From Actinomycetota bacterium (lineage in GTDB: Bacteria > Actinomycetota > CADDZG01 > JAHWKV01), in contig JAHWKU010000002.1 of the NCBI GenBank assembly GCA_019347715.1, positions 118,349 through 182,348 on the forward strand: 64,000 nt of DNA, read 5' to 3'. The number at the start of each line of letters is the position of its first letter. Within the stretch, counting starts at the first letter, position 1. This document shows, in pieces, positions 17,219-34,255 of the stretch. The notes below the pieces were generated by a model that ran no database searches, had not been told where the DNA came from, and saw nothing but the letters and a program-made list of their open reading frames with translations. The translations under genes and the position numbers were made by a program.

Positions 17219-17219
17219 G

Positions 17220-18146
17220 ATGACGCTTGCGATCAACCCCATCGAGGTTGCGAGTTTCGGCATCTCTGCAGGAGCAGTGTTCGGCCTTCTGGCCTTGGGT
17301 CTTGTTCTGATCTACCGCACCACCGGAGTCATGAATTTCGGCCACTGGGCTATCGGATTGGTGGCCGTGGTCTCATACGCTTGGCTGACCGGTGAAGGGA
17401 TGCTGCCCCAGGCCGCGCTGCCTATCTGTCTGCTCTTGGCGATGGGGGCAGGTGTGGCCGCTTACCGTTTGGTTTTCAAGCGGATCGCTCGCTCCAACCA
17501 GATTATCGTGATCCTGGTCGCCGTCGGGATCGCGCAGTTTTATTCATCCCTGGCTGCGCTGGTTCTGGGCTTCCGTCCTTTTACGCGACTGCCTCCGTGG
17601 CTGCCGATGGCCACACTCGAGGTGGCTGGGATGAGACTGCGAATGTCCGACGTTTACACGATTGGGGTTGGACTTGCGATCGCCGTGGGTTTCTTCTTCT
17701 GGTTCAGAGTTTCGCGATCCGGCCAGGCTCTAAGAGCCGTAGCTCAGAACCGTGAAGCCGCAGTTCTTGCCGGAATCGATGATGTCCGGTATTCGTCGCT
17801 TGCGTGGGCAATCGGATCGGGCCTCGCTGCACTTGCTCTTTTGATCATCATGCCCCACTCAGCCGGCCAACAAGGGGGCCTCATCACCACCTTCGACCTG
17901 ACTCCCCTCGGGACGCTTCTCATCCCGGCGTTCGGTGCCGCGCTGGTTGGGGGCCTGGTGAACCTTCCGATGGCCTTGGTGGGGGGGGTTTTCTTCGGAC
18001 TCACCAGGGAGTTCCTGGTGCTGGCTCCCGCTCCGTGGAGTGAACTGAGAACGAGCGTCGCCGCGATCCTCATCGTCGTTCTGCTTCTGCTTCGGACGGA
18101 GCGATTCTTCGCTACACGCCAGGAGCTGGAGGCGCTCGAAGCGTGA
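17220..18146 (+). CDS. Branched-chain amino-acid ABC transporter permease (LivH-like)
   Basis: Typical LivH N-terminus and 8-9 TM helices. ATG 2 nt after the upstream stop. Confidence 0.8.
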   Translation: MTLAINPIEVASFGISAGAVFGLLALGLVLIYRTTGVMNFGHWAIGLVAVVSYAWLTGEGMLPQAALPICLLLAMGAGVAAYRLVFKRIARSNQIIVILVAVGIAQFYSSLAALVLGFRPFTRLPPWLPMATLEVAGMRLRMSDVYTIGVGLAIAVGFFFWFRVSRSGQALRAVAQNREAAVLAGIDDVRYSSLAWAIGSGLAALALLIIMPHSAGQQGGLITTFDLTPLGTLLIPAFGAALVGGLVNLPMALVGGVFFGLTREFLVLAPAPWSELRTSVAAILIVVLLLLRTERFFATRQELEALEA

Positions 18147-19249
18147 GTACCGCCGTCGAGACCCCGGAAGTTCCGGAACAGGTCATAGAGGCGCCCAGCA
18201 CGGTCGCCACGAAAAAGAACCGTCGCAATCAGATCATCGCGCTAGGTGCCCTTGCGGCACTCGGGGCCGTGCCGATTCCCTTCGGGGACTACGGTTTTTT
18301 CATCGGTCAATACGCCGCGGTTTACGCCATGCTCGGTCTTTCGGTCACGATAGTGACGGGTTACGCGGGACTGATCTCCCTCATGCCGTACACCTTCGCC
18401 GGACTTGGTGCAGTTATGACGGGACTGATCATGACCGGGTGGGGCTGGCCATTTTGGCTGGCCGCACCGATGGCGGCTCTAGCGACTCTTCCGGTATCGC
18501 TTGTGGTCGGCATGGCATCGGTGCGTTTGAAGACCCTCTACCTTGCGATTGCAACCCTCACGTTTTCTACCGCACTTGGCGAAACGTTCTTTCGCTGGGA
18601 CCTCGTTACCGGTGGGCGCATCGGTTGGACTGTCGCCTCCCCGCAACTCGGCCCGATCGACTTCGGCACCGACTTGAACTTTTATCTCCTTTGTCTTCTC
18701 GTTGTACTCGGTCTCGTTTGGATGACGGAAGGCCTGCGCACCTCGCGCCTCGGCCGGGCCATGCTTGCGGTTAGGGATAACGAGCTGGAGGCACAGGCGC
18801 TTGGAATCAATGTCTACAAGACGAAGCTCGCCGCCTTCGTCCTGAGCGGCATGATGGCAGGCTTCGGTGGCGCTTTCCTTGCAGTGCTTCTCGGCAATGT
18901 CTCCCCTGGTGGTTACCAGTCTCCGGTCGCTGAGGTAACCTCCATCCTTCTGGTATCCCTGGTTGTGATCGGCGGTATCGACCGGGCTTGGGGCGCCTTC
19001 TTCGGTGCTATCTCGCTTGTAGTGCAGTCACAGGTCTTCCAGGGAGCGAGATTCTTCTTCCCATTCTTCGGGATGTACTCGGCGTTCTTCCTCATCCTGT
19101 TCCTTCTGTTCCGTCCAGGCGGACTGGTGCAGGTATCGAAGATCACTACCGAACTGGTTAAGCGCCGGCCGGTGTTTGGACTGGCCGTAGTGCTCGTAAC
19201 TGTTGCACTGAACCTCGGGATCGCCTACATCTTCATAAGGGCCTCGTGA
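18143..19249 (+). CDS. Branched-chain amino-acid ABC transporter permease (LivM-like)
   Basis: LivM-type permease with N-terminal extension. 4-nt overlaps with both neighbours. Confidence 0.8.
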   Translation: MSTAVETPEVPEQVIEAPSTVATKKNRRNQIIALGALAALGAVPIPFGDYGFFIGQYAAVYAMLGLSVTIVTGYAGLISLMPYTFAGLGAVMTGLIMTGWGWPFWLAAPMAALATLPVSLVVGMASVRLKTLYLAIATLTFSTALGETFFRWDLVTGGRIGWTVASPQLGPIDFGTDLNFYLLCLLVVLGLVWMTEGLRTSRLGRAMLAVRDNELEAQALGINVYKTKLAAFVLSGMMAGFGGAFLAVLLGNVSPGGYQSPVAEVTSILLVSLVVIGGIDRAWGAFFGAISLVVQSQVFQGARFFFPFFGMYSAFFLILFLLFRPGGLVQVSKITTELVKRRPVFGLAVVLVTVALNLGIAYIFIRAS

Positions 19250-20028
19250 TGTCGATTCTCGAGACGAAGGACCTCAGCATCACCTTCGGCGGCATCTCGG
19301 CGCTGGATGAAGTATCGATCAACGTCGAGCCAGGAGAGATCGTGGGCATCCTCGGGCCGAACGGTGCAGGTAAGACGACCCTTTTTAACGTCATCAGCGG
19401 ATTCCTGAAATCCGACCAGGGCAAGGTGATTCTCGACGGGGAAGAGATCCAGAACCTGTTCCCATACGAACGTGTGGCGGCTGGACTGGCTAGAACATTT
19501 CAGCACGTCAAACTGTTTCGCAATCTGACCGTCTACGAGAACCTTCTTGTAGCGCAGCACCGTCATCTCTCCAGCGGTTCATTCGCCGCCATGCTGAGAC
19601 TCCCGAGTTGGCGCAAGGACGAAAAGCTTGCGAAAGACCTCGTCGAGAAGATGCTCGACACCATCAACCTTCGCCCGTGGAAAGATGCGAGGCCATCCGA
19701 GCTGTCGTACGGAACCACTCGTTTCCTGGAGCTCGCGTCGGTCCTTTCTCTGAAGCCGAAGATCCTGCTGCTCGACGAGCCGGCATCTGGTATCCAGCAG
19801 AGGGAGGTCGAGGCACTCGGTCCAATGCTGAAGGGCATAAGAGATGAAACCGGCTGCGCGATCGTCTTGATTGAGCACGACATGGGTCTTCTGTTCTCGG
19901 TTTCAGAACGGGTGTATGCCCTCGACTTCGGACGTCTCATCGCCGAGGGCACTCCCGATGAAGTCGCGAACGACGATCGAGTGCTCGAGAGTTATCTCGG
20001 CAGAACCCGAAGGGATAGCGTTGCTTAG
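19246..20028 (+). CDS. ABC transporter ATP-binding protein (LivG-like)
   Basis: Walker A GPNGAGKTT, LivG-type C-terminal extension, signature LSYGTTRFLELA, Walker B LLLDEPASG. Confidence 0.85.
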   Translation: MMSILETKDLSITFGGISALDEVSINVEPGEIVGILGPNGAGKTTLFNVISGFLKSDQGKVILDGEEIQNLFPYERVAAGLARTFQHVKLFRNLTVYENLLVAQHRHLSSGSFAAMLRLPSWRKDEKLAKDLVEKMLDTINLRPWKDARPSELSYGTTRFLELASVLSLKPKILLLDEPASGIQQREVEALGPMLKGIRDETGCAIVLIEHDMGLLFSVSERVYALDFGRLIAEGTPDEVANDDRVLESYLGRTRRDSVA

Positions 20029-20752
20029 ATTAGAAGGCATACATGCTTTCTACGGGCCGGTGCACGTCCTGTTCGGTACGAACCTCGAGGTTGGCGACGG
20101 AGAGATCGTCGCACTGCTTGGGACCAACGGTGCTGGGAAGACCACGATCCTTCGAGTCATCTCCGGCCTCCTCCCTCCAGCAGAGGGAGACGTCATCTGG
20201 GAGGGGGAGTCGATCCGAGGCCTCCGTCCGGCAGACATATTGAAGAAGGGCATCGTGCAGATGCCAGGGGGCCGGGGGGTTTTCCCGGGAATGACCGTTG
20301 AAGAGAACCTGCAAATGGCTGGGTTTCTCTACGGCAGGGACAAGAAGACCAGAAACGAGATGATCGATCGCGTTTTCGGCTACTTCCCGATCCTTGCCGA
20401 TCGTCGCAAGCAGGTTGCGGGAAGCATGTCGGGGGGACAGCAGCAGCAATTGACGCTGGCGAAGAGCTTCGTCCTCAACCCCAAACTTCTTCTTATCGAC
20501 GAGCTGTCGCTCGGCCTTGCTCCGATAATCGTCGAACAGCTCCTCGAGATCATCAGACGCTTCAATGAAGAGGGAGTGGCAGTCGTGATCGTCGAGCAGC
20601 ACGTCGACCTTGCCCTGGACGTCTCATCGCGTGCTTACTTCATTGAACGGGGAGAGATCCGTTTTTCCGGGCCCGCCGAGGACCTCCGGGGCCGAAACGA
20701 CTTGCTGCGCTCCGTCTTCCTATCGGGGGCCGGAGCAGCCACCGAGGGCTAG
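20021..20752 (+). CDS. ABC transporter ATP-binding protein (LivF-like)
   Basis: TTG start at 20021 (LLRLEGIHAFYGPVHVLFG). Walker A GTNGAGKTT, signature MSGGQQQQLTLAKS. Confidence 0.8.
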   Translation: MLRLEGIHAFYGPVHVLFGTNLEVGDGEIVALLGTNGAGKTTILRVISGLLPPAEGDVIWEGESIRGLRPADILKKGIVQMPGGRGVFPGMTVEENLQMAGFLYGRDKKTRNEMIDRVFGYFPILADRRKQVAGSMSGGQQQQLTLAKSFVLNPKLLLIDELSLGLAPIIVEQLLEIIRRFNEEGVAVVIVEQHVDLALDVSSRAYFIERGEIRFSGPAEDLRGRNDLLRSVFLSGAGAATEG

Positions 20753-22053
20753 GTCTTCAGAGAGTTGGTCTTGGCGATTGAGCCGTACCAGGAGAGGCTT
20801 GGTTTCGGGGTTCTTTCGAACGTCTCTCCGTCGCATGCGATAAGGCCAAACTTCGGGCGGTAGCCCTCGTTCCACTCGAAATTGTCGAGATAGCTCCAGT
20901 AGTAATAACCTCGAACGTCTCGGCCCCGTCCGATTGCTTTGTGGACCTCTTCGAGGTGAAGGCCGACGTATTCGATCCTCTCTTCATCGTCTTCGGTGGC
21001 GATGCCGTTTTCGGTGATGATCATAGGAAGGCCGACTTCCGACACCTCGTCGATCACGGTCCCCAGCCCTTCGGGGTGCCACACCCATCCCATCTGGGTC
21101 GTCCGGTCTTCCTCGGCGGCCCCCCGCCGCAGCGTTCCGGGCCCCAAATCTGCAGGGCCAGACTCCGGGCCTGTATCTCGAGCAGCGGCTTGGGGGAGGG
21201 CGGATGGATCCGCTACGAACTTCGTGTAGTACTGAATGCCGACGAAATCGTCGGTCCCTCCGATCTGCGGCACTTCCTCATCGGGGACCATTAGCCCCGT
21301 GATGCGCCCGTCTCGAAGCGCCGCGTAATAGACGCCCGCCATCGAGTAGTGAGTGAAGTCGCGAAACGACTTCGCCTCATCACTTTCGTCGACAGGAACG
21401 AAGTCGTTGATCGAAAGCGTGATGCCGACTTTAGCTTCACATGTATCGCGGAGCGCCTCGATCGCCGCGGCGTGTCCCTTGATGAGGTTGGCAGTTGCTT
21501 TCTGGGCTCCGTCGATTGTCGTCTTGCGTGGCGGGAAATAGCCGAGGGCGTATCCCATCACCGCTACGATCTGCGGCTCGTTGATTGTGCAGACGTACTC
21601 GAACAGATCGCCGAACATTTCTCCGCACCGCCGGGCGTAGCGTCCGAAAGCTTCGGAAGATTCATCGAGCTCCCACCCGCCTTCTTTGGCGAGCCACAGA
21701 GGGCTGGTGAAGTGGTGCAGGGTGACGGAAGTCGTGAGCCCCCGGTCACGGGCTGACCCGATCACGTCACGGTAGTGGTCGATCTCCTTGGTCGAAAATT
21801 CGCCGGGGGAGGGCTCGATGCGAGACCACTCGATCGAAAACCGGACGCTGTTCTGGCCTGAATCCGCGATGAGCTTCCAGTCCTCTTCGAAGTGCTCGTA
21901 CGAGTTACATGCGCGGCCGCTGGGTTCGACCGCCGGCGTTTCGTCAGCGTGCTCGTGCTCCCACCAGTCGCAGTTGGTGTTGTCGCCTTCCGTCTGATGA
22001 GCGGCCCCGGCCGAGCCCCAGAGAAACTCCTGTGGGAATTGGAGTTCTGCCAG
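20749..22053 (-). CDS. Glycoside hydrolase family 1 (beta-glucosidase-like); N-terminal ~100 codons lack a canonical start
   Basis: Acid/base TINEP and nucleophile ITENG present. The frame stays open upstream of the ORF-track GTG (21765) and encodes the GH1 N-terminus LAELQFPQEFLWGSAGAAHQTEGDN..., with no in-frame ATG/GTG/TTG after the stop. CTG at 22051-22053 (complement) is preceded by GGAGGTG. The N-terminal boundary is uncertain. Confidence 0.6.
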   Translation of the reverse strand: MAELQFPQEFLWGSAGAAHQTEGDNTNCDWWEHEHADETPAVEPSGRACNSYEHFEEDWKLIADSGQNSVRFSIEWSRIEPSPGEFSTKEIDHYRDVIGSARDRGLTTSVTLHHFTSPLWLAKEGGWELDESSEAFGRYARRCGEMFGDLFEYVCTINEPQIVAVMGYALGYFPPRKTTIDGAQKATANLIKGHAAAIEALRDTCEAKVGITLSINDFVPVDESDEAKSFRDFTHYSMAGVYYAALRDGRITGLMVPDEEVPQIGGTDDFVGIQYYTKFVADPSALPQAAARDTGPESGPADLGPGTLRRGAAEEDRTTQMGWVWHPEGLGTVIDEVSEVGLPMIITENGIATEDDEERIEYVGLHLEEVHKAIGRGRDVRGYYYWSYLDNFEWNEGYRPKFGLIACDGETFERTPKPSLSWYGSIAKTNSLKT

Positions 22054-22104
22054 GGTGCACCTCCAGCCAAGTCGTCGGGATCGAGAGCGGCTAACCTACA
22101 ACCT

Positions 22105-22335
22105 ATGTGCAGAAGCATAAAGACCCTTAGAGAGGGAGCTATCCTTGCCACCGACGAGGAGATCGAGGCGGCCGCGCTTCAGTTTGTCCGCAAGATCAGT
22201 GGTTTTCGTCAGCCTTCCAAGGCCAATGACGAAGTTTTCCGTGAGGCGGTGGCCGAGATAGCCGTGTCCTCTAAGCGCCTGCTCGAGTCCCTGGTGGTTC
22301 GGAACGCGACCGCGACTCACTCGCTGCCCACGTAA
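22105..22335 (+). CDS. DUF2277 domain protein
   Basis: Start refined to ATG 22105. MCRSIKTLREGAILATDEEIEAAALQFVRKISGFRQPSKANDEVFREAV matches the conserved MCRNIKTL... small-protein family. Confidence 0.65.
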   Translation: MCRSIKTLREGAILATDEEIEAAALQFVRKISGFRQPSKANDEVFREAVAEIAVSSKRLLESLVVRNATATHSLPT

Positions 22336-23548
22336 AGATTCCCTTAGACATCGTGGAGGCCTCGGCTCCTGCGCGTCTCTCGTAGATCGAGGCTCTGACG
22401 CGGTGAAGGTCGGGGTTATCGGGCGCGACCAGAATCCCGAACTCGATCAGCTCGCACGCGACGTCCAGGCGGCCCTCCTTTGCCAGGGAGGCCGCCCTCG
22501 AGATGATCTTCTCCAGGCCCCCGGACAACGACACGATCTCGGTTGCCAGATCGCGGCGCGCGGCGGGTTTTAAACGCGATGGATCACCTTCGTACCAGCC
22601 CCCGTATAGCCGCCAGATGTTGCGAACGATGAATCCCGGCTCATCGTAGATCGGTCTTAGATAAGGGCGGTCGGCAAGATGGGCGGGAGGGATGACCGAG
22701 CGGACGATCTCCTCCAACGAAGCACCCGAGTTCATCATCTCGAGCGTCTGCTCGACCAGTGATTCCAGGAACTCCGCCGTTTCGTCGAGCGTCTGACGGA
22801 TTCGATCCCTCCCGATCACGGGAAGGCCGTGCCCGGGAAGCATCACTTCGGCCCCGAGCTTGGCCATTTCTCGCAATGCCTGGGACCACTCATGCGCGTA
22901 TCGCTGAACCTTCTGAGGATTCCCTGCATTCGGTGCGGTCCAGATGAAGAGGTCGCCGGTCAGCAGGATCTTGCTATCCGGCACCCAGGTCCAGGTATGG
23001 TCGTCGGTCTCGCCTCTAGCATGGTGCAGCTTTAGTTGGAGACCCCCGTCACTCGTCGTCATGGTCCCGTCGTAAGTTTCATCCGGGTACCGGTAGTCGG
23101 TCGGCCATCTCAATCCTGGGACTTGGAACTGACGCTGATTGATGACGGCGTTGTAACCGGCCGTGAGCCGGTATCGATCGAATCGACGGCCGACGTTTTC
23201 ATGGGCGATCACCTTGAGAGGGCCTTCTTCCTCGAACAGAGCGGCTCCCGAAACGTGGTCGATGTGCCCGTGGGTATAGAGGATCCTGCGAACGGGAGCT
23301 TTCGACCAGGTGCGGATACTGTCCCTAATCATCCTGGCCGTGAATGGGCTCCCGGTATCGACAAGAGTGAGACCGTCGTCGGCTGAAAGCGCTACGGAAT
23401 TGCCGAACGAGGCGACGAATGCGGCTCGAGGGGCTACCTCAACCAAGTCGGCCCCCATCGAGAACGGATGATGATCTTCGATGGAGGCCTCGCCGCGCCA
23501 GAGTCGGTCGGCAAGGTCGATCAAATCGGTCACGACCGGATTATCCAC
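22271..23548 (-). CDS. MBL-fold metallo-hydrolase, alkyl/aryl-sulfatase-like
   Basis: 425 aa with metallo-beta-lactamase motifs (THGHIDH, D, H) and a C-terminal dimerisation/SCP2-like region typical of the SdsA1 family. Its 3' end overlaps the convergent DUF2277 gene by about 65 nt. Confidence 0.6.
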   Translation of the reverse strand: MDNPVVTDLIDLADRLWRGEASIEDHHPFSMGADLVEVAPRAAFVASFGNSVALSADDGLTLVDTGSPFTARMIRDSIRTWSKAPVRRILYTHGHIDHVSGAALFEEEGPLKVIAHENVGRRFDRYRLTAGYNAVINQRQFQVPGLRWPTDYRYPDETYDGTMTTSDGGLQLKLHHARGETDDHTWTWVPDSKILLTGDLFIWTAPNAGNPQKVQRYAHEWSQALREMAKLGAEVMLPGHGLPVIGRDRIRQTLDETAEFLESLVEQTLEMMNSGASLEEIVRSVIPPAHLADRPYLRPIYDEPGFIVRNIWRLYGGWYEGDPSRLKPAARRDLATEIVSLSGGLEKIISRAASLAKEGRLDVACELIEFGILVAPDNPDLHRVRASIYERRAGAEASTMSKGIFTWAASESRSRSEPPGTRAGA

Positions 23549-23613: not shown

Positions 23614-25782
23614 GTGCAATTCCTGAAGGATCTCATCGACCGCGACCCGGCCACGTCGTTTTGGACCGGCCTGCTATTCCTCATGGTGGTCACGTCCGCT
23701 CTCTTCGGCTTTCCTGCACCGCTCGGCATCGTGGCTCTTGGCGGAGTGATCGGGGGGCTGATCGCGTTCATCTCTATCGGGCTGGTCCTGGTCTATCGCA
23801 CGAACCGGATCATCAACTTCGCCCACGCCGACATCGGCGCTACAACGGTCATCCTTGCCATTCTTTTGGTTAGGGAAGTCCAGATCAGCTATGTCACCGG
23901 CGTTCTGATCAGTCTTGGGTCTGCATTGCTGCTGGGCGCTCTCATTGAGAAGACGGTAGTCCGCAGGTTCTTCAAGGCTCCCCGTCTCATCCTTACCGTC
24001 GCAACGATTCTTCTCGCGCAGGTGCTCATCGGGTTTCAGGTTTTGATGCCTGCCCTTTTCCGGGCGGACATTGTTAGCCCAAACTTTCCTACTCCGTTTA
24101 CTTGGAGGTTCTCGATCCCGGACCCAACCGGCTCCACTCCCCCGGTGAACTTCGATGGCAACCACTTGCTTGCGATCATCGCGGTGCCGGTCGTGGTGAT
24201 CGCACTCACGCTGTTTCTCAGAAACACCTCGGTAGGAAAGGCGGCCAGGGCAGTTGCAGACAATGCAGAACGAGCGTCACTTCTCGGGATCCCAGTCCGC
24301 AGAGTCTCAACGGTTGTATGGATTGTGGCAGCTGGACTGTCGGCTCTCGGTGCCCTGCTGCGTGCTCCCACAGTCGGTCTCTCGGTAACGGGAGGGGCCT
24401 TCGGCGCATCGCTCTTAGTGAGAGCACTCGCTCCCGCCGTGGTAGCCCGGATGGAGAACCTCAGGACGACCTTCGTGGCTGCTGTGGTCCTTGGGATCAT
24501 CGATCAGGCCGCTTTTTATCGCACGCTCGACGAGTCGGTCAGCAATACCATCCTGTTCGTGATCATCCTTGGCGCTCTTCTACTTCAGAGGCGGGGGTTG
24601 GTTACGAGGGCAGACGAAGTCGAAGCTGGGACCTGGCAATCGGTAAAGGAGATCCGACCGGTTCCCAAGGAACTGAAAAGTGTTCCCGAGGTGAGGTATG
24701 GACTCCCTGCGCTGGTTCTGGGGGCGTTGGCGGCATTAGTCATCTACGGTTTGTTCGCCACCAACTTTCGACTCGAAGGACTCACGCTGATCATGATCTA
24801 CGGGATCATCGGGATCTCTCTCGTGATCCTCACCGGGTGGGCCGGACAGGTTTCGCTTGGGCAGATCGGTTTCGTAGCGGTCGGTGGGGCGATATGCGGG
24901 AGACTCGTGCTCGACAACGAGATGAATCTTCTGCTTGCGCTGCCGATCGCGGGCCTCGTGGGCGCGGTAGTGGCGATAGCGATCGGACTGCCGGCCCTTC
25001 GGATAAGAGGGTTGTTCCTAGCAGTTTCGACCGTGGCCTTCGCGCTGTTCATCGCGACCATGGGCCTCAGCCCGGAGTACTTCGGGTGGATGCTTCCTTC
25101 CGGCAGGATCCCGCGCCCCAGCGTCTTTGGAGTTCAACTCACTTCGAAGCCGCTCTTTTACTTCGTGCTCGTCGTATTGATCCTGGTGATGGCGTCGGTA
25201 CGAAGCCTGAGAAAGAGCCGTACCGGGAGAGTTTTGATCGGAGCTCGGGACAACGAAAGGGCGGTCCGCACCTTCGGCGTAAACGTGACCTGGGCGCGAC
25301 TCACTTCGTTTGCCCTCTCCGGGTTTTACGCCGCGATCGCAGGGGGGCTTTTTGCCATCCACCAAAATGACGTTACCCCGAGCGCCTTCACGGTGCAGAA
25401 AGGTCTCGAGATCTTTGTGATGGTGGTCATCGGCGGGCTGGGATCGGTTCCCGGCGTCCTTCTCGGGGCCACCTTTTACGGCGCGAGCCAGCTGTTCTTT
25501 ACCTCCGTCGTGGCAAGATTGGCCAACGGCTTTTTGGGGCTCACACTTTTGATGATCATCCCAGGAGGTTTGGGACAAGTTCTGTTCGGATGGCGCGACG
25601 CTGTATTGAGGTTCATCGCGAAGCGTAAAGGCGTGATCGTGCCCAGCCTCGTCGCGGACGTACGGGTGGAGGAATCGGTGCTTCTTCCCGGCGCGCGGCG
25701 CTCGGAGACCGAAGAACCCGATTCTATAGAAGTGATCGAGGAGGAGGCTCTCGCGGAGTCCCCGGCTGGAGGTGAGGGATGA
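23614..25782 (+). CDS. Fused branched-chain amino-acid ABC permease (LivH-like + LivM-like domains)
   Basis: 722 aa with two permease modules in one polypeptide. Stop overlaps the ATG of the next gene. Confidence 0.8.
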   Translation: MQFLKDLIDRDPATSFWTGLLFLMVVTSALFGFPAPLGIVALGGVIGGLIAFISIGLVLVYRTNRIINFAHADIGATTVILAILLVREVQISYVTGVLISLGSALLLGALIEKTVVRRFFKAPRLILTVATILLAQVLIGFQVLMPALFRADIVSPNFPTPFTWRFSIPDPTGSTPPVNFDGNHLLAIIAVPVVVIALTLFLRNTSVGKAARAVADNAERASLLGIPVRRVSTVVWIVAAGLSALGALLRAPTVGLSVTGGAFGASLLVRALAPAVVARMENLRTTFVAAVVLGIIDQAAFYRTLDESVSNTILFVIILGALLLQRRGLVTRADEVEAGTWQSVKEIRPVPKELKSVPEVRYGLPALVLGALAALVIYGLFATNFRLEGLTLIMIYGIIGISLVILTGWAGQVSLGQIGFVAVGGAICGRLVLDNEMNLLLALPIAGLVGAVVAIAIGLPALRIRGLFLAVSTVAFALFIATMGLSPEYFGWMLPSGRIPRPSVFGVQLTSKPLFYFVLVVLILVMASVRSLRKSRTGRVLIGARDNERAVRTFGVNVTWARLTSFALSGFYAAIAGGLFAIHQNDVTPSAFTVQKGLEIFVMVVIGGLGSVPGVLLGATFYGASQLFFTSVVARLANGFLGLTLLMIIPGGLGQVLFGWRDAVLRFIAKRKGVIVPSLVADVRVEESVLLPGARRSETEEPDSIEVIEEEALAESPAGGEG

Positions 25783-28700
25783 GCCGAGTTCGTGGATTCG
25801 TAGAGAAGCGCTGGCCGTTCATGGAGGGCCGGGAGATCTTCCCTCTTGGCCTTCTGTTGATCCTGAACGCGGTCGACGAGTTCGATGTCTCCGCATTCAA
25901 CACCCTTGCACCCGAGATCCGCGATGCCTTCAACCTAAGCAATACGCAGTACGGAGTCATAGCCGCGCTGACGACAGTCCTGGTCCTTCTGAGTGGTCTT
26001 CCGATTGGGTTTATTGGAGACCGGCTGCCCAGGGTCAAGTTGGTCGCGGTCGCCGCGGTTCTGTGGGCAAGCATGTCGATCCTCACCGGACTCGCTCCCG
26101 TGATCTGGGTACTCATAATCGCCCGACTCGGAAGCGGTTTCGGACGGGTTGCCAACGAAGCCATCCATACGAGCCTGCTGACCGACTACTATCCGCAGCA
26201 CATCCAGGGTCGGGTCTTTGGCGTCCACCGTCTGGGAAACCCCGCGGGCAGAGTGATTGGCTCGTTCGCGGCGGGCGCCATCGCCGCGCCGTGGCTATTC
26301 GGAGATTGGAGATGGGCGTTCTTCATCGTCTCCATCCCAACCTTTCTCATAGCGGGATTTGCCCTCAAGCTAAGAGAGCCCGTCCGGGGGGAGGCCGAGG
26401 ACTATGACCTGGCCGCGGAGGCTGCCAAAGAATCGTCCATCCCATTTTCTCGCGGGTGGAGATGGCTCTTTTCGGTACCGAGTCTCAAGCGTTTTTACAT
26501 CTCGGCTTTCTTTGGAGGAGGAGTCATCTTCGCCCTCTCTGCGTTCCTGGCCTTGTTCTTCGAGGACGAGTTCGGGGTCAGTGAGTTCGGCCGGGGTTTG
26601 ATCAACGCCGGAAATGGAGCGGCCCAGTTCGCCGGCACGCTGATCGGCGGAATAGTTGCCGATCGGATGCGCCGAGTGGGCCTCGGCAAGATCGCTTTCG
26701 TGGCAGGGCTGGCAGTGGCCGGGATCGGAGTCGGCGTCGTGTTGATCGGGGCCTCTCCGGTTTTGCTTGTCGGGCTGATGGGGAGCTTCGTCGCGTGGTT
26801 CTCGATAGGGTTCTGGACCCCAACCCATACTTCGGTGTTCGTGATCGTCCTGCCTGCGCGTATCCGGAGCCTCGGCATCGGCATCGGGGTGATGTTCTTT
26901 GGAGTGGGCGGATTCGTTTTCACGATTTGGGCCGGTGCCATCAGTGATGCATCGGGAATCCGGGCCGCCATAGCGACACTCGCCCCCGGCATGTTCGTGG
27001 CGGCTGGGGTCTATCTCGCTGCCGCTCGCCACGTGAATGCCGACGGACAAAGAGCGCTAACGGCTTTGGCTCTCGAAGTCGAACTGAGGCAGGAGCGGCT
27101 GACCGCAGGGCAGCAGGCGATGCTGGTGTGTCGTGGGGTGGACGTTGCCTACGAAGGGGTGCAGGTTCTGTTCGGCGTCGATTTCCAGGTGGAACAGGGG
27201 GAGATCGTCGCGCTTCTGGGAACGAACGGCGCCGGCAAATCCACATTGCTGAAGGCCATCTCAGGAGTGGTCCAGCCAATCGGGGGGGCGGTTTTCTTCG
27301 AGGGAGAAAACATCACGTACTACGACGCCCCCGAGGCGGCAAGGGCCGGAATCTCCCAGGTCCCCGGGGGCCGCGGGGTCTTCCCCTCTCTCACTGTGAA
27401 AGAGAACATCGAGCTCGCTTCCTGGATGTTCCGGAAGGACAAGGAGTTCGTGAAGAGCAGTGTCGATGAAGTCCTGGACATATTCCCGATCCTTAGAGAG
27501 CGCTGGGATACGAAAGCCGGCAACCTCTCAGGGGGAGAGCAGCAGATGCTCACTCTCGCCCAGGCCTTCATTGCCAGACCGAAGCTGATAATGATCGATG
27601 AGCTGTCCCTCGGATTGGCACCGAAGCTGGTGGATCAACTGCTGGAGTCGGTGAAGGCCATGCATGCCCGCGGGATGACCATCATCTTGGTGGAGCAATC
27701 TGTGAACATCGCTCTGACGGTTGCCCAGAGAGCTTATTTCATGGAGAAAGGCGAGATTCGCTTCAGTGGGCCTGCCGCTGAGCTTCTGGGCAGAACCGAT
27801 TTGATCCGGTCGGTGTTCCTCGAGGGGGCGGGACGAGACGGAGCGGGCAAACGCACCACAATCAAGGAGAGGAAAACAGCCTCCGTCGATCCATCCGAAG
27901 AGATGGCCCTCACGACCGTTGGATTGTCGGCTTCTTACGGGGGTATCCGCGCTCTCGACGAGGTGAGCCTCAATCTGAAGAGCGGTCATATCCTCGGAGT
28001 GATCGGTCCCAATGGAGCCGGAAAGACCACTCTCTTCGACGTCATATCTGGTTTCCTCAAGCCAGACTCCGGACGCATCTTATTGATGGGAGATGACATC
28101 ACCGAACTCTCGGCAGACGAGCGCGCCAGGAGGGGTCTCGGTCGTTCCTTCCAAGATGCGAGGCTTTTCCCATCTCTCACGGTGTCGGATAACATCGCCC
28201 TCGCCCTCGAACGCCACCTTGATGTTAAGGAGCCGGTAGCAGCTGCCCTAGGACTCCCCGCCGTTAGAAGCTCGGAGAGAAAAGCATCGGGAAAGGTCGA
28301 AGAACTGATCGAACGGATGGGGCTCGAGGCATTCCGGGACAAGTTCGTTCACGAACTCTCCACCGGGAGCCGGCGGATCGTCGACCTTGCCTGTTCGCTC
28401 GCCCATGAACCGAAAGTGCTCATCCTGGATGAACCATCATCTGGGATCGCCCAGGCCGAGACCGATGCCCTCGCCCCTCTGCTGTTGAGGGTTAAGGATG
28501 AGCTCGGATGCAGTCTTCTGGTGATCGAGCATGACATCCCCCTGGTCTCATCCGTTGCCGACGAGCTGATGGCATTGGATCTGGGGCGAGTGATCTCCAG
28601 GGGATCCCCTTCTGAGGTGGTAAATGACCCCAGAGTGGTGACTGCGTATCTGGGCACCAAGGAAGAGGTCATCGCTCGATCCGGGGGCCTGAAGAAAAAA

Positions 28701-28805
28701 GCGGACAAGAGGGCCCCGAGGAAAAAGCCCTCAGGGCGTGTCAAGAAACCGACAAATACCAAAAAGCGCAGAGTGGAGGACAATAGCCACCGGCGGCGAA
28801 CCTAA
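25779..28805 (+). CDS. Tripartite fusion: MFS transporter domain + LivF-like ABC ATPase + LivG-like ABC ATPase, with Lys-rich C-terminal tail
   Basis: 1008 aa. Residues 1-~420 show 12 TM helices with an MFS-like pattern. Then GEIVALLGTNGAGKSTLL..LSGGEQQMLTLAQ (LivF-like). Then GHILGVIGPNGAGKTTLF..LSTGSRRIVDLACS (LivG-like). C-terminus KKKADKRAPRKKPSGRVKKPTNTKKRR. Confidence 0.75.
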   Translation: MSRVRGFVEKRWPFMEGREIFPLGLLLILNAVDEFDVSAFNTLAPEIRDAFNLSNTQYGVIAALTTVLVLLSGLPIGFIGDRLPRVKLVAVAAVLWASMSILTGLAPVIWVLIIARLGSGFGRVANEAIHTSLLTDYYPQHIQGRVFGVHRLGNPAGRVIGSFAAGAIAAPWLFGDWRWAFFIVSIPTFLIAGFALKLREPVRGEAEDYDLAAEAAKESSIPFSRGWRWLFSVPSLKRFYISAFFGGGVIFALSAFLALFFEDEFGVSEFGRGLINAGNGAAQFAGTLIGGIVADRMRRVGLGKIAFVAGLAVAGIGVGVVLIGASPVLLVGLMGSFVAWFSIGFWTPTHTSVFVIVLPARIRSLGIGIGVMFFGVGGFVFTIWAGAISDASGIRAAIATLAPGMFVAAGVYLAAARHVNADGQRALTALALEVELRQERLTAGQQAMLVCRGVDVAYEGVQVLFGVDFQVEQGEIVALLGTNGAGKSTLLKAISGVVQPIGGAVFFEGENITYYDAPEAARAGISQVPGGRGVFPSLTVKENIELASWMFRKDKEFVKSSVDEVLDIFPILRERWDTKAGNLSGGEQQMLTLAQAFIARPKLIMIDELSLGLAPKLVDQLLESVKAMHARGMTIILVEQSVNIALTVAQRAYFMEKGEIRFSGPAAELLGRTDLIRSVFLEGAGRDGAGKRTTIKERKTASVDPSEEMALTTVGLSASYGGIRALDEVSLNLKSGHILGVIGPNGAGKTTLFDVISGFLKPDSGRILLMGDDITELSADERARRGLGRSFQDARLFPSLTVSDNIALALERHLDVKEPVAAALGLPAVRSSERKASGKVEELIERMGLEAFRDKFVHELSTGSRRIVDLACSLAHEPKVLILDEPSSGIAQAETDALAPLLLRVKDELGCSLLVIEHDIPLVSSVADELMALDLGRVISRGSPSEVVNDPRVVTAYLGTKEEVIARSGGLKKKADKRAPRKKPSGRVKKPTNTKKRRVEDNSHRRRT

Positions 28806-28818
28806 GGGAGGGTGACCT

Positions 28819-30654
28819 ATGGGATTCATGGACCGCGTTTTTCAAGCCGGGCGCCGGCTCGACCAAAGCGTCTATCGCAAGCTCGGCCTCGACAAAGCCG
28901 TCGAGGCGATCCGCCCGAAACTTCCCCCGAGTCTGATGCGATTCGGAGCGAGGTACGGCCCCGTCGTGGGGATCGTCACCCTCGTAGCTCTCTACGCCGC
29001 GGCCTTGTCCGGCACGACGGGCGTAACTACCACAGACGATCTCACCGACCAGGAGGCATTGGAGCGTTTCACCGGTCTTCCCGGAGAGGAACTGATCGAC
29101 ACTCCCTCTCCGGGGTCTCCGGAGGAGGCCGCGCAGCAAGCACAACGAGCAGCCAGCGCAGCCGCAGGAGAGATAGCAAAACAATTCGTCGCGCCGCCCA
29201 CCTCAAACGTCTGCGGCAAGAACAACGTTCTCCAAACCGGTTCAACCGTCCAATTCCCCTGGGCGGTGCAGTGTCTTCCGAAATTCAGCGGTGATAACGG
29301 CGGCGAGACCTATCGCGGGGTTTATCGCGACAAGATCCGCATGGCCTGGTATTACTCGAACGACCCGGTGATCGTGGGCGCCACGAAAGCTGCCGGTGGC
29401 TGTGGAAGCTTCGAATGCTCCCAGGATTACATGCAGACCTATGTCGACTGGTTCATGAAGTACTACGAGACTTTCGGCAGAAAGATCGAGCTGGTTCCAA
29501 TCCAGAGCAGCGGTAAGGACGACGATCCCACGGCGGCCCGAAACGATGCTGAGCGGATCGCCGGCTTGAATCCGCCCGTCTTTGGTGTGCTGAACGCGCC
29601 GGGACAGGCTGCTCCCTCGTATGTTGCGCGTTTGAAAGAGGCAGGAATAATGTGCTTTGGCTGCGGGGTCTCTTTGCCTCAGGAGTTCTCGGAGCAGATG
29701 GCTCCGTTTGCCTGGGGAACGCTGCAGTCATCGACTTTCGCCTACATCCATCGGGCCGAGTACGTCGGGAAGCGTTTGGCACCTCATCCGGCGAACCATG
29801 CCGCCGGGTTGCTCAAGGACAAACCGAGGACTTTCGCCCTGGTGTACTTCGATAACACGAATCGCGATTACCAAAGCGGAGTCGACTTCTTCGAGCAGGA
29901 ACTCAAAGAGAAGTATGGGGTGACCCTTAAAGAGAAGATTCGTTACGTGAACATTGAAGGATGCAACATCAATGCCGGCGTAATGGTAAATGCTCTCAAG
30001 GCTGCGGACAACGGCCAGAGCGTCACTTCCGTGATCTTCTCGGGAGATCCGATCTGTCCTATCGAACTTACCAAGCAGGCGGAACTCCAAGGGGCTCAGT
30101 GGGAGTGGATCATCACTGGGTCGGTGCTGACCGACACTAACAACTTCGGCCGGCTATACGACCAGAATCAATGGAGCAGGGCTTTCGGAGTATCAATGCT
30201 CGCCCCGGACGTGAAGAACCAGAACGACTACTGGTTCAAGATGTACAAGGAAATGAAGCCCAACGGTACTCCGCTGGAGGAGGCCCCCGTGGTGCTCGGC
30301 CCTCCGATCATTTTCTTCACCGGAGTGCACCTCGCGGGCCCGAAGCTCGCACCAGAGACCTTTGCGGCAGGTATGGCTAAGGCCATCCCGACCGGTGGGA
30401 CGGTAACCATCGGCCGCCGCTCGTACGGGCCCAAGAAGCTCGGAGGAAGGACCTTCCTCGACTACACCTCGTTCGACGACATGACGGAGATCTGGTGGGA
30501 CCGCAACGCGAGGGACCCAAATAACAGGCAGGGAGCGTACTGGTACGTCGACGGTGGTAGTAGATATGCGTGGTATGGCTGGCCCGACACTAAGCCAAGG
30601 GCATTCGACACGAACGGGGCCACCACCGGTTACGAAAAGGCGCCCGACCAATAG
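28819..30654 (+). CDS. Membrane-anchored divergent substrate-binding protein (type I PBP-like), partner of the fused Liv-type transporter
   Basis: RBS AAGGGAGGG before the ATG. N-terminal TM anchor, low-complexity linker, large extracytoplasmic domain. C-terminal region resembles the 14310-15800 protein. Confidence 0.5.
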   Translation: MGFMDRVFQAGRRLDQSVYRKLGLDKAVEAIRPKLPPSLMRFGARYGPVVGIVTLVALYAAALSGTTGVTTTDDLTDQEALERFTGLPGEELIDTPSPGSPEEAAQQAQRAASAAAGEIAKQFVAPPTSNVCGKNNVLQTGSTVQFPWAVQCLPKFSGDNGGETYRGVYRDKIRMAWYYSNDPVIVGATKAAGGCGSFECSQDYMQTYVDWFMKYYETFGRKIELVPIQSSGKDDDPTAARNDAERIAGLNPPVFGVLNAPGQAAPSYVARLKEAGIMCFGCGVSLPQEFSEQMAPFAWGTLQSSTFAYIHRAEYVGKRLAPHPANHAAGLLKDKPRTFALVYFDNTNRDYQSGVDFFEQELKEKYGVTLKEKIRYVNIEGCNINAGVMVNALKAADNGQSVTSVIFSGDPICPIELTKQAELQGAQWEWIITGSVLTDTNNFGRLYDQNQWSRAFGVSMLAPDVKNQNDYWFKMYKEMKPNGTPLEEAPVVLGPPIIFFTGVHLAGPKLAPETFAAGMAKAIPTGGTVTIGRRSYGPKKLGGRTFLDYTSFDDMTEIWWDRNARDPNNRQGAYWYVDGGSRYAWYGWPDTKPRAFDTNGATTGYEKAPDQ

Positions 30655-32261
30655 AGGGGCCGACAAGAGAAGGCCTCTAGGTGGAGGCGTCCTTTCCGAC
30701 GGTTGCGAAGCAGCGCCATCAGCAGGGCGCCTGCTAGAAGCAGGATCGTTGCTGCTGTCTGAGCCCCTGGCAAGGTCGATTCTCCCGTAGCTGCGAGCTG
30801 ACCTGGCCTCCCGCCCGTTGGCAACGGGAAGGGGACTCCAAGTAGCAATTCGACGTTTTGATCTGCCGCGGTTCCGATCTTGGTGAAGTCTTGCTGGGGG
30901 TCGTTGTAAAGGATCTCTCTCCCCGCGGAGGCCAGCCAGTCCTCGTTGATCTGCCGCGCCCCTGCTGTGATTTCCTCGGTCGGGGTGGGATCGTCGACTA
31001 CCCAGTCGATACCGCTTCCGGCCCTCACGTTCGGATCGACTGCAGCTTCGAAGACCACGGCGAATATGGAGATGGTTCCGTCGAGGTTGTCGGCGATCTC
31101 GATCGTCCTGGAATGCGTCGGGAAGTCCGCGATAGCAGAAGTGTTGACTTCCCAGTACGAGGTTCTCTTCTCCTCGTCCTTGTGCCCCCAGATCTTGTTT
31201 TGATGGGTGTGTCCGTCGGCATGCAGGATCACATTCGGGAAACGAAGCAGCAGCTCTCTCAGATCGTCTCCAAGCTTCACTCCGCCCTCGACGTGGGGCG
31301 GGTGGTGGCCCATCTGTTCGTTCCACGGATAACCCGGATTGACCATGCTTCCCAGCGGATGGTGGGCGAAAATGACGATCAGCCGGTCCTTTCCCGCCGG
31401 GTTTGAAGCTTCCCGGCCTTGAGCGTCGAAGTAACTCGTCGAAGACCTCTTCAGCTGTTCTTCGAGCCAGGCGAACTGGAGCGGGTCTAGGTTGCCGTTC
31501 TCCAGCCCTTCAGTTGCGGTGGTATCGAGCGTGATGAAATGAAAAGGTTCCTCTATCCATTGATAGCACGCCCTTCTCAGAACTGAAGCCGGTGTGGTCG
31601 GAGTGCCCGGCTGAGCCGGACACCGCGTGTTCTCCGGGAGGAAACCATGTCCTTCTGGGATTCCGGTTGTGACGACGTGTTCGTCGATCCATTCTTGGCG
31701 GTCGAAGATCCTTCGGTCTGGGTCTGCCGGTACCGCAGTCGTGTTGCCGACGGTCGGAAGGACGTTCATCCAGTAGTTGGGGTCGGTGAAACCTGCGCAC
31801 GCGTCACCCTGGGACCCTTGAGGAACCCCAACGACTTTGGTACTGCCGACCGCGTGAGCCCGGATGAAAGCCCGCCAAACCGGGTCGTCATCGGGAATGC
31901 TTCCCTGGATCTTCATGTCGTGGTTGCCCATCACCGCGTACCACCGGAGATGGGATCCGGGAGGCTCGCGGAAACTGGTCGCCCAGAATGGCTCGTTGGC
32001 TAGATTTACCAGAGGTACGGAAGCGGGGCCCGGCGCGGTCGGGGCGTTGGCCGGCTTCTGAAGTGGAGGATTTCCTCCAACGGGGTCTTGACCCTGCACT
32101 CCGTTGTATCCATCGCCGGAGCCGAACGGCCCCGGTTTGCCCGAGTCGGAATTGACGAGCTTGCCGCCGTCGAAGAGATCGATCATCAAGCGGGTCTCGT
32201 TGTACTGCTGATTGTTGACGAGATCGCCGAGTGCGACCGCAAAGTCAAACGGATGCTGCAA
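30630..32261 (-). CDS. Metallophosphoesterase (calcineurin-like), C-terminal major part of a frameshift-split gene
   Basis: TTG start in the track. Motifs GDLVNN, GNHD, GHTH. C-terminal hydrophobic tail. The upstream in-frame sequence also reads protein-like up to a stop at 32316-32318. Confidence 0.6.
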   Translation of the reverse strand: MQHPFDFAVALGDLVNNQQYNETRLMIDLFDGGKLVNSDSGKPGPFGSGDGYNGVQGQDPVGGNPPLQKPANAPTAPGPASVPLVNLANEPFWATSFREPPGSHLRWYAVMGNHDMKIQGSIPDDDPVWRAFIRAHAVGSTKVVGVPQGSQGDACAGFTDPNYWMNVLPTVGNTTAVPADPDRRIFDRQEWIDEHVVTTGIPEGHGFLPENTRCPAQPGTPTTPASVLRRACYQWIEEPFHFITLDTTATEGLENGNLDPLQFAWLEEQLKRSSTSYFDAQGREASNPAGKDRLIVIFAHHPLGSMVNPGYPWNEQMGHHPPHVEGGVKLGDDLRELLLRFPNVILHADGHTHQNKIWGHKDEEKRTSYWEVNTSAIADFPTHSRTIEIADNLDGTISIFAVVFEAAVDPNVRAGSGIDWVVDDPTPTEEITAGARQINEDWLASAGREILYNDPQQDFTKIGTAADQNVELLLGVPFPLPTGGRPGQLAATGESTLPGAQTAATILLLAGALLMALLRNRRKGRLHLEAFSCRPLYWSGAFS

Positions 32262-32758: not shown

Positions 32759-34255
32759 ATGACTATGGGAATCACGAGACCATTTCGTAAGGAAACTAGA
32801 CCCCGAGGACTAGCGAGGCTAGATCTCTGGTTGTTCAGGCGCGTTGCGAAGACCGAGTTGCCCATCGTAGATAACGCGCTTCTTCCTCTCACGCGAGCGG
32901 CTAACAGGTCGAAGCTTTGGGTTGGGATAGCGGCAGTGCTGGCCACATCGGGGGGCCGGTTCGGAAGGCGTGCAGCTCTCAGAGGTCTGATTTCACTGGG
33001 CATAACCTCTGCCTTGGTCAATCTCCCCGCCAAGTGGATCGCGCGACGAGCAAGGCCGTCGATCAAAGGGGTCCCAGAGGCTCGCAGGCTGCGGCGACTT
33101 CCGACCTCGTATTCCTTTCCCTCGGGACATTCCGCCAGCGCTTTCGCTTTCGCCACCGCGGTATCACAGGAGCTTCCGGTACTCGCGGCCCCCATCTTTA
33201 CTCTTGCGAGCGGAGTCGCCTACTCCCGCGTCTACGCCGGCGTGCACTATCCGGGCGATGTCATTGCGGGCGCGGCTGCAGGTTCGGCTTTGGCGCTGGC
33301 AACTCGCAGATTCTGGCCGCGAGCTCCAAAGGATCCCATCAACCACGGGGTGACTTTTGAGACGAACCGGAGGCAAGGGGCCCCTACGGGACGTTCAGTG
33401 ACACTGGTTGTGAATCCATCATCTGGCCCGGCCCTTTCAAGAGATCCTTCGGACAGCCTCGAGACATTGCTTCCTGAAGCCAAAGTGCTGTCAGCCGATG
33501 GGGAGGACATGGCGGAGCTTCTGAAGCAAGCAGCAGCCGGGGCGGACGTCTTCGGCGTGGCGGGGGGCGACGGCTCGGTCAATTGTGCGATAGAAGTCGC
33601 TTCTGAAACCGGTAAGCCGCTCGTGGTGATACCTGCCGGGACGCTCAATCATCTCGCTCGTGACCTGGGGCTCACGAGCGTTCGAGAAGCCGCACAAGCG
33701 GTTGCAAACGGGACGACGTCCACCGTCGATATCGCACGCATCGATGGCAAGCCTTTCGTCAATACCGCAAGTCTCGGAACTTATCCCGAACTGGTCGATT
33801 ATCGAGAGAAGCTGGAATCGAAGATCGGCAAATGGCCGGCCCTTTTTGTAGCTCTGGTCAAAGTTCTAAGAGAGGCGACTCCGATAAAAGTGGAGCTTGA
33901 TGGGGAGCAACGTCAGATCTGGCTCATGTTTATCGGCAATTGCCTATACCAGCCGGCAGGATTCGCGCCGGTCTGGCGCGAGCGGCTGGATGACGGCAAG
34001 CTGGATGTGCGAATCCTCTCTGCAGAGCATCCTTTCGGTCGAACACGCTTCGCTCTTTCGGTATTAACCGGGACGCTTGGTAGGTCCAAGATCTACGATC
34101 AGATGGTTACCGAACAGTTGAAGGTACGTTCGCTCGATGGCCCGCTCCGGCTGGCGTGTGACGGCGAGAGCTTCGATGGCACCGACGAGTTCGTGATCGT
34201 AAAAGCCGGGGAGCAAGTCCAGATTTTCGTTCCCGAGCCGCCGGAGAACGCCTAG
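32759..34255 (+). CDS. Bifunctional PAP2 phosphatase / diacylglycerol-kinase-catalytic-domain (DAGK_cat) protein
   Basis: N-terminal PAP2 motifs (KxxxxxxRP, PSGHSA, SRVYAGVHYPGDV). C-terminal lipid-kinase motif GGDGSVN of the DAGK_cat/YegS family. Confidence 0.75.
   Translation: MTMGITRPFRKETRPRGLARLDLWLFRRVAKTELPIVDNALLPLTRAANRSKLWVGIAAVLATSGGRFGRRAALRGLISLGITSALVNLPAKWIARRARPSIKGVPEARRLRRLPTSYSFPSGHSASAFAFATAVSQELPVLAAPIFTLASGVAYSRVYAGVHYPGDVIAGAAAGSALALATRRFWPRAPKDPINHGVTFETNRRQGAPTGRSVTLVVNPSSGPALSRDPSDSLETLLPEAKVLSADGEDMAELLKQAAAGADVFGVAGGDGSVNCAIEVASETGKPLVVIPAGTLNHLARDLGLTSVREAAQAVANGTTSTVDIARIDGKPFVNTASLGTYPELVDYREKLESKIGKWPALFVALVKVLREATPIKVELDGEQRQIWLMFIGNCLYQPAGFAPVWRERLDDGKLDVRILSAEHPFGRTRFALSVLTGTLGRSKIYDQMVTEQLKVRSLDGPLRLACDGESFDGTDEFVIVKAGEQVQIFVPEPPENA

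Follow-up and report, generated by a model that had tools for sequence, protein, structure and literature searches.

An MFS domain fused to the tandem ATPases of a Liv-type ABC importer cassette in Actinomycetota

What is a major facilitator superfamily (MFS) domain doing at the head of the ATPase pair of an ATP-binding cassette (ABC) importer? The question is raised by three genes of an Actinomycetota bacterium (GenBank assembly GCA_019347715.1), located at positions 23614-30654 of a 64,000-nt stretch of contig JAHWKU010000002.1 (contig positions 118,349 to 182,348, forward strand). This whole stretch is called the window here, and all coordinates refer to it. ABC and MFS proteins are the two largest transporter classes and are regarded as separate machines with different energy sources. 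In this cassette they share one polypeptide, the MFS part of which is a bona fide MFS domain, and the fusion belongs to a widespread, uncharacterised family. Homology gives good support for reading the cassette as a whole as a Liv/HAAT-type ABC importer that depends on a binding protein and is complete in itself.

The cassette and its fusion protein

The cassette is composed of the following features (TM, transmembrane; NBD, nucleotide-binding domain; ORF, open reading frame; AF2, AlphaFold2 structure model; pLDDT, predicted local distance difference test).

23614-25782, + strand: fused LivH-like and LivM-like permease, 722 aa, GTG start
25765-25782, + strand: translational coupling site, a Shine-Dalgarno-like GGAGGTGAGGG followed by an ATGA start/stop overlap, read directly from the sequence
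25779-28805, + strand: MFS-LivF-LivG fusion ORF, 1008 aa
25779-27038, + strand: MFS domain, probably of a Spinster-like subfamily, 12 TM helices, aa 1-420 (MFS_1 and AF2)
27039-27116, + strand: connector, a predicted cytoplasmic continuation of TM12 up to NBD1, aa 421-446
27117-27827, + strand: NBD1, LivF/UrtE-like ATPase, aa 447-683 (NCBIfam LivF PRK11614 and UrtE TIGR03410 at aa 446-683)
27828-27902, + strand: disordered linker between the NBDs, aa 684-708 (pLDDT below 50 at aa 684-703)
27903-28658, + strand: NBD2, LivG/UrtD-like ATPase, aa 709-960 (NCBIfam match at about aa 710-960)
28659-28805, + strand: disordered Lys/Arg-rich C-terminal tail and TAA stop, aa 961-1008 (pLDDT below 50)
28806-28818, + strand: 13-nt intergenic spacer with a GGGAGGG ribosome-binding site, read directly from the sequence
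28819-30654, + strand: membrane-anchored substrate-binding protein, 611 aa

All three ORFs lie on one strand and are tightly joined. The fusion gene starts inside its 4-nt ATGA overlap with the permease gene (25779-25782), behind the GGAGG-type ribosome-binding site in GGAGGTGAGGG, and the spacer at 28806-28818 lies between the TAA of the fusion ORF and the ATG of the binding-protein ORF. These are the junctions on which the first-pass annotation, made from the letters alone, had based its claim of a translationally coupled unit, and both are as it described them. A promoter and terminator scan gave no signals above chance inside the cassette, and the window contains no Rfam match. Because the genes flanking the cassette in the window are not kept beside it in any other locus, we consider these three genes to be the unit.

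The same annotation had described a complete 12-TM MFS domain followed, in one polypeptide, by a LivF-like and then a LivG-like ATPase, and the Pfam and NCBIfam profiles and the AF2 model bear this out. MFS_1 (PF07690) matches aa 26-343 of the fusion with 124 bits (cut-off 33.4). The AF2 model, predicted for the single chain from a 41-sequence alignment, has a pLDDT of 82.9 overall and above 90 across the MFS domain, where it places TM helices at aa 21-42, 55-80, 85-105, 109-137, 140-169 and 179-195 (TM1-6) and at aa 234-265, 269-298, 302-324, 329-354, 360-392 and 402-443 (TM7-12), arranged 6+6 with a cytoplasmic loop at aa 196-233. A crude hydropathy count of the TM helices was unreliable and is superseded by this model.

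Both NBDs possess a Walker A motif, a signature motif and a Walker B motif with its catalytic glutamate (GTNGAGKS at aa 481, LSGGE at 583 and LIMIDE at 603 in NBD1; GPNGAGKT at 743, LSTG at 860 and VLILDE at 880 in NBD2). NBD2 additionally carries BCA_ABC_TP_C (PF12399) at aa 937-961, and the fusion therefore provides the LivG-type and LivF-type NBDs that are expected of a Liv/HAAT importer. The totals for UrtD and UrtE (310 and 322 bits) are above their cut-offs, but each sums the matches to both NBDs. The NBD half of the AF2 model finds its best structural matches in the single-chain tandem NBDs of Mycobacterium tuberculosis DppD and OppD, on which it superposes with TM-scores of 0.45-0.61 (normalised to the target). 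The tail that follows NBD2, which had been called polylysine, is really a mixture of Lys and Arg, and it is not conserved: among family members it ranges from 6 to 118 aa, with a median net charge of +3.

The permease is indeed the LivH+LivM fusion that it had been taken for. It contains two BPD_transp_2 (PF02653) stretches (197 bits in Pfam), the membrane domains of a Liv/HAAT system, of which the N-terminal half (about aa 45-333) is LivH/UrtB-like and the C-terminal half (about aa 371-652) LivM/UrtC-like according to NCBIfam. A hydrophilic joint at about aa 335-365 separates the halves, and the C-terminal tail is acidic. All NCBIfam equivalog scores of the permease fall far below cut-off (UrtB 81 against 250 bits, LivH 54 against 379, UrtC 80 against 296), and by sequence no PDB entry matches it at E ≤ 0.01.

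The third gene had been read as a membrane-anchored, highly divergent binding protein, and the structure model (pLDDT 85.7) agrees. It predicts a basic cytoplasmic N-terminus, a TM helix at aa 37-63, a disordered spacer at aa 64-125, a two-lobe type I fold of the LivJ type at about aa 130-535 and a beta-rich C-terminal extension at aa 537-584. The domain scan that recovered MFS_1, ABC_tran and BPD_transp_2 from the cassette found no Pfam match in this protein; NCBIfam, UrtA included, gave none either, and its profile had no PDB match at E ≤ 1. With it, the operon nonetheless holds the cognate type I extracytoplasmic binding protein (LivJ fold, Peripla_BP_6) of a Liv/HAAT importer. As a side observation, aa 1-36 (28819-28926) are predicted as a two-helix cytoplasmic extension ahead of the TM anchor with moderate confidence (pLDDT 75-84). 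This extension is kept only in the closest subclade, where homologues at 48-92% identity cover it, and more distant homologues begin near the TM helix.

The roles of the parts are well supported by homology: the LivJ-fold protein, tethered to the membrane by its N-terminal helix, captures a solute outside the cytoplasm, the single-chain LivH-LivM permease forms the translocation path, and the covalent LivF-LivG pair, with consensus motifs intact at both ATP sites, powers high-affinity import. The MFS domain, probably Spinster-like, is joined to the N-terminus of the LivF-like ATPase through TM12, which is predicted to extend as a rigid connector of fixed length.

Recurrence and natural variants of the fusion

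Could the fusion be an artefact, with separate MFS and ABC genes run together by a frameshift, an overlooked stop codon or chimeric assembly? The window does come from a metagenome-assembled genome (MAG), and in five long-read assemblies of relatives the fusion gene is itself frameshifted (L012, L021, L022, L052 and L059). Against this, NCBI has a 100%-identical protein, annotated simply as 'MFS transporter [Actinomycetota bacterium]' and encoded on a contig of 285 kb, and proteins with 93-94% identity come from independent assemblies. PF07690 and PF00005 occur together in every one of the 120 best homologues, which span 850-1126 aa and 49-100% identity; the identical NCBI entry is counted among them, and three are partial. 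A profile built from just the MFS domain, run against a single genome of each species, found at least 504 loci in species-representative genomes that encode a relative of this domain, nearly all from Acidimicrobiia or other Actinomycetota, including Iamia and Aquihabitans MAGs. The cultured Actinospongicola halichondriae Hal317 has two copies on its finished chromosome (L025 and L066, NZ_CP171622.1), at about 740-755 kb and 783-798 kb. Locus architecture was examined in 80 of the at least 504 loci: the MFS domain, NBD1 and NBD2 share a single stop-free frame in 57, with the same connector length in different species, the finished chromosome among them, and about ten more loci are cut by contig ends. 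The fusion is thus conserved across species, which refutes the artefact reading; its probability is negligible.

The first-pass annotation had also raised the possibility that this exact fusion is a common and already characterised family. The first half of this holds, given the number of loci, and the second does not. As for conservation of the neighbourhood, in about 72 of the 80 loci the MFS gene is immediately preceded by a fused LivH-LivM permease; the genes that flank the cassette in the window are absent from all 80. A homologue of the binding protein follows the fusion, as it does in the window, in 7 loci; in about 46 it precedes the permease, and in L081 the arrangement is divergent. 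When the search was run outward from distant homologues of the binding protein, it led back to the permease and MFS-ABC-ABC genes. Judged by the features of the MFS-LivF(-LivG) family, namely a helical connector of 32-34 residues, the residues D422, A426 and L430 and an adjacent fused LivHM, all of which it shows, the window protein is a typical member.

Two further observations concern gene order. Long stop-free frames upstream of the fusion in high-GC loci suggested a superfusion of permease and MFS, which we rejected because the permease is in a different frame. In the commoner order (binding protein, permease, fusion), a fourth conserved gene directly follows the fusion in 39 of the 80 loci (for example L011:6773-7783). 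Its product of about 340 aa has a signal peptide, a Pro-rich region, a C-terminal TM anchor and no Pfam match, and the gene is absent from the window and its subclade.

The family comes in several natural variants. Four loci encode a free-standing MFS protein (443-574 aa) with no ABC gene within 7 kb; the genes beside these (among them an RNA pseudouridine synthase/methyltransferase, an MscS channel and a glyoxalase) were uninformative as context. When the MFS subfamily is represented by its 150 best 50%-identity cluster representatives, 66 are free-standing, 21-25 have one NBD (one Walker A, about 700 aa) and 17 have two. In L064, L072, L067 and L028 an MFS-LivF protein is accompanied by a separate LivG gene, owing to a stop and restart within the linker between the NBDs. 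With the LivG-like NBD thus encoded on its own in some relatives, the junction that stays constant is that of the MFS domain with the LivF-like NBD. Conversely, in a sister system (L082) the binding protein is homologous and the permease is fused, but the LivF-LivG protein, of 570 aa, lacks both MFS domain and connector. MFS-less tandem ATPases of this kind number at least 116 in the same taxa, with 66-90% identity to the L082 protein. Because the ABC core is complete without it in these sister systems, the MFS domain is an optional add-on.

A crude neighbour-joining tree of NBD1, built with a single outgroup and biased sampling, intermingles the one-NBD and two-NBD forms (the largest pure clades hold 34 of 56 two-NBD and 9 of 21 one-NBD proteins) and places the sampled MFS-less proteins as one clade among MFS-bearing ones. 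Such a pattern hints at repeated fusion, fission or loss. Separately, among the matches listed only L048 falls outside Actinomycetota: on this contig, binned as Burkholderiales, an MFS domain with one NBD is found, with a permease and a second NBD about 1.5-3.5 kb further downstream, which could be due to mis-binning or horizontal transfer.

Possible roles of the MFS domain

By sequence, the MFS domain appears to belong to a Spinster-like subfamily that also occurs free-standing. Its best solved relative is HnSpns (6e8j), a bacterial Spinster homologue (E 6e-29, with strong alignment only in the N-terminal half), and human SPNS1, DgoT and EfpA are further near relatives of solved structure. 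The best NCBIfam matches are to sugar-acid and aromatic-acid symporter subfamilies, all far under cut-off. The loop between TM2 and TM3 bears the motif A that is expected of an MFS protein (consensus G-x3-D-R-x-G-R-K/R), in the form G77-F-I-G-D81-R82-L-P-R85-V-K.

We counted residue conservation over 117 full-length homologues of the fusion. Ten residues (D33, D81, R82, R85, R116, N126, H130, D136, H150 and R272) are invariant in 117/117. R363 (116/117), D36 (112/117), E34 (108/117), R123 and R151 (106/117 each) are nearly so, and position 127, a Glu in the window protein, is Glu or Asp in 111/117. In the HMMER alignment D36, R116 and D136 correspond to Asp41, Arg122 and Asp142 of HnSpns, which are its buried proton site, its motif-B arginine and a charge-relay residue, respectively (PMC9440201). 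The four free-standing relatives share the conserved residues of the fused copies, with the exception of N126, kept in one of the four. Because relatives without a nearby ABC gene keep them, these residues serve the MFS domain's own mechanism, and the fused domain has therefore retained the machinery of its subfamily.

This speaks against a decayed anchor. A passive anchor or assembly scaffold, in which the MFS domain holds the tandem ATPase at the membrane or stabilises or localises the complex with no ligand-related role, would fit the lower identity among homologues in the MFS domain (45%, far below about 70% in the NBDs) and the sister systems, whose ABC core works without it. Such a scaffold, on the other hand, needs neither an intact motif A nor some 20 conserved polar or charged intramembrane residues that are common to free-standing transporters; it would be a costly one at 12 helices, and the NBDs of Liv systems normally need no anchor. 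Overall, we find this explanation rather unlikely.

The connector is where the fused proteins have a character of their own. In the AF2 model TM12 is one unbroken helix (aa 402-443) that ends four residues short of the first strand of NBD1 at aa 447. In 116 of the 117 homologues 32-34 aa separate the end of TM12 from NBD1, while the linker between the NBDs varies from 17 to 41 aa across the family. Along the connector runs a conserved stripe at helical spacing, D422-A426-L430-(V/A)434-R437, of which A426 and L430 are conserved in fused proteins and not in free-standing relatives. A rigid, phase-fixed helix with one conserved face, as sequence and model predict here, would be a requirement of mechanical or allosteric coupling and needless for a mere tether.

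We therefore favour, tentatively and at somewhat less than an even chance, a reading in which the MFS domain is still a working proton-coupled secondary permease that accompanies the importer in a 1:1 ratio, its conformation coupled to the cycle of the ATPases via the connector. The rocker-switch state of the MFS domain and the opening and closing of the ATPase dimer would influence each other through this helix. The same solute, or a related one, may thereby gain either a second route of lower affinity or one of counter-flow, and the two routes would regulate each other.

Several points weigh against this proposal. The Arg42 with which HnSpns binds substrate is replaced by Val in the window protein (it is Arg in 67/117 homologues), and the protonation (master) switch Glu129 by Arg123; because of these two replacements the charge network of the MFS domain is unlike that of its only studied relatives. 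Since TM12 lies at the periphery of the MFS fold, transmission of force through it is not assured. Finally, a sensor that only binds substrate would keep the same transport-type residues.

A sensor or regulator is the likeliest of the alternatives. As a transceptor or an element of trans-inhibition, the MFS domain would bind a solute or sense the proton-motive force with no net flux, and the connector would switch the importer. ABC importers often bear regulatory domains on their NBDs, the fixed-length helical connector with its fusion-specific stripe would suit a relay, and the MFS domain is dispensable for the core importer. However, free-standing members of the subfamily are common (66 of the 150 best representatives), and the fused copies retain their motif A and charged residues, which is consistent with retained turnover; a sign of lost transport was not found in the sequence. 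We judge a sensor unlikely. In short, the evidence weakens a mere anchor and favours a transport-competent MFS domain mechanically tied to NBD1, and it does not separate a second path from a sensor.

A bolder reading, which we hold to be improbable, is that the connector renders the MFS domain ATP-gated or ATP-driven, such that one LivF-LivG pair would run both the Liv-type path and the MFS path. Closure of the LivF-LivG dimer, relayed by the rigid TM12 helix, would then bias the rocker switch of the MFS domain. If true, the protein would genuinely combine primary with secondary active transport, and its solute might be an amphipathic, lipid-like acid. Set as a rival to the favoured reading, this hybrid would use ATP binding and hydrolysis at the NBDs to drive or gate alternating access directly via TM12, for instance with the MFS domain as an ATP-powered path to which the binding protein or the permease would pass a lipid-like solute. 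The rigid, length-invariant coupling of TM12 to NBD1 fits this idea, as do the nearness of the MFS subfamily to Spinster lipid transporters and the mixing of one-NBD and two-NBD forms in the crude tree, with the link to NBD1 as the constant feature. Yet the NBDs always have a complete LivHM permease, served by its own binding protein, to work with, just one NBD is tethered, and that to a peripheral helix, and neither the literature nor the PDB chains offered a precedent. As a rival it is very improbable.

A covalent and rigid ABC-MFS join that is kept across hundreds of species of Acidimicrobiia and other actinobacteria argues for a selected cross-talk between primary and secondary transport. 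Whichever role the tether turns out to have (dual-affinity uptake, counter-flow, trans-regulation or ATP gating), it would add a design principle to transport biology, and it would explain a gene that pipelines label only 'MFS transporter' or 'branched-chain amino acid ATP-binding protein'; the automated names at JGI list both COGs, for the MFS and ABC halves alike. The family supplies its own natural controls, in which the MFS domain is free-standing, joined to one NBD or to two, or missing as in the sister systems, and it includes at least one cultured carrier with a finished genome.

The substrate may be an organic or amphipathic acid sooner than a branched-chain amino acid. This weak hint comes from the structural neighbours of the binding protein, which include aromatic-acid and fatty-acid binders, from the NCBIfam matches of the MFS domain and from genes that recur beside related loci, namely short-chain dehydrogenases (9 loci), luciferase-like oxidoreductases (6) and AMP-binding CoA ligases (5). 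The genes that flank the cassette in the window (GH1, alkyl-sulfatase-like, phosphoesterase-like and PAP2-DAGK) were rejected as substrate clues for want of a counterpart in the 80 related loci.

These and other neighbours deserve a brief description. A conventional, unfused Liv-type operon (14031-20752, + strand) lies 3 kb upstream of the cassette and encodes a 589-aa Peripla_BP_6 binding protein, a 473-aa protein and then separate LivH, LivM, LivG and LivF. The 473-aa protein has a signal peptide, a Pro-rich stretch, a C-terminal TM helix and no Pfam match; the product of about 340 aa of the fourth gene in related cassettes resembles it in layout, not detectably in sequence. The cassette was considered as a paralogue of this operon and the idea was dropped, as its binding protein has no pairwise similarity to the 589-aa or the 473-aa protein. 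The GH1 gene (20749-22095, - strand) has a frame that stays open for about 110 codons upstream of its first ATG/GTG/TTG (21765); this open stretch encodes the conserved N-terminus of GH1 and holds a CTG at 22053 as its only plausible start, so the start may be non-canonical, the sequence may contain an error or the gene may be a pseudogene. Next to it, an alkyl-sulfatase-like metallo-beta-lactamase (Lactamase_B and Alkyl_sulf_dimr; 22271-23548, - strand) is divergent from the cassette. On the other side, a convergent gene (30630-32261, - strand) overlaps the last 25 nt of the binding-protein gene. Its product is metallophosphoesterase-like, with GNHD and GHTH motifs and a weak PF00149 match. 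The C-terminus of this protein, LAATG followed by a hydrophobic stretch and then RNRRKG, resembles a sortase-type cell-wall sorting signal. Further on (32759-34255, + strand), a PAP2 lipid phosphatase and a diacylglycerol-kinase (DAGK) catalytic domain are combined in one protein.

Comparison with known transporters

The first-pass annotation had called this architecture non-standard, and we concur. The PDB holds no chain that combines an MFS domain with NBDs, no curated family in NCBIfam or Pfam covers the architecture, and full-text searches of the literature found no description of an MFS domain fused to ABC ATPases.

The importer part is closest to LivJ/LivHMGF and UrtABCDE (HAAT, TC 3.A.1.4), with which it shares two BPD_transp_2 domains, a LivG-type NBD with BCA_ABC_TP_C, a LivF-type NBD, a type I binding protein of LivJ fold and the arrangement in one operon. 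Unlike in those systems, LivH and LivM form one chain in the window cassette, LivF and LivG form another in F-then-G order, the NBDs are preceded by a 12-TM MFS domain, and the binding protein is a helix-anchored one of 611 aa without a Pfam match, where theirs is soluble or a lipoprotein. The cassette fails the equivalog tests for urea transport (UrtABCDE) on both permease and binding protein. A further relative is the MFS-less sister system L082, whose binding protein is 29%, fused permease 36-40% and tandem NBDs, in the same order, 57-59% identical.

Two importer NBDs in one polypeptide, assembled as a canonical dimer, are also known from M. tuberculosis DppD (DppABCD) and OppD (OppABCD); these belong to a peptide/opine-type importer family and, unlike the window fusion, have no membrane domain attached. 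The MFS domain itself shares motif A, the Asp of TM1, the motif-B Arg of TM4, the charge-relay Asp and a 'DYYP' stretch with the Spinster proteins HnSpns (6e8j) and human SPNS1/SPNS2, and differs from them in its fusion to ATPases and in the additional invariant residues D33, H130 and H150. Of the features that PMC9440201 defines for HnSpns, a TM1 Asp-Arg pair, a TM4 Arg (RxxxG) and a Glu switch in TM4, the window protein has the TM1 Asp and the TM4 Arg, with Val in place of the TM1 Arg and Arg in place of the Glu.

For MFS domains with a covalent partner there are two parallels. LplT-Aas proteins are lysophospholipid transporter-acyltransferase fusions. Both these and the Sensor Kinase-MFS fusion family (TC 2.A.1.34, listed in PMC3924187) have an MFS domain joined covalently to a cytoplasmic catalytic or signalling domain, an arrangement thought to couple transport with downstream activity. 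In the window protein, by contrast, the partner of the MFS domain is not an enzyme or a kinase but the engine of another transporter.

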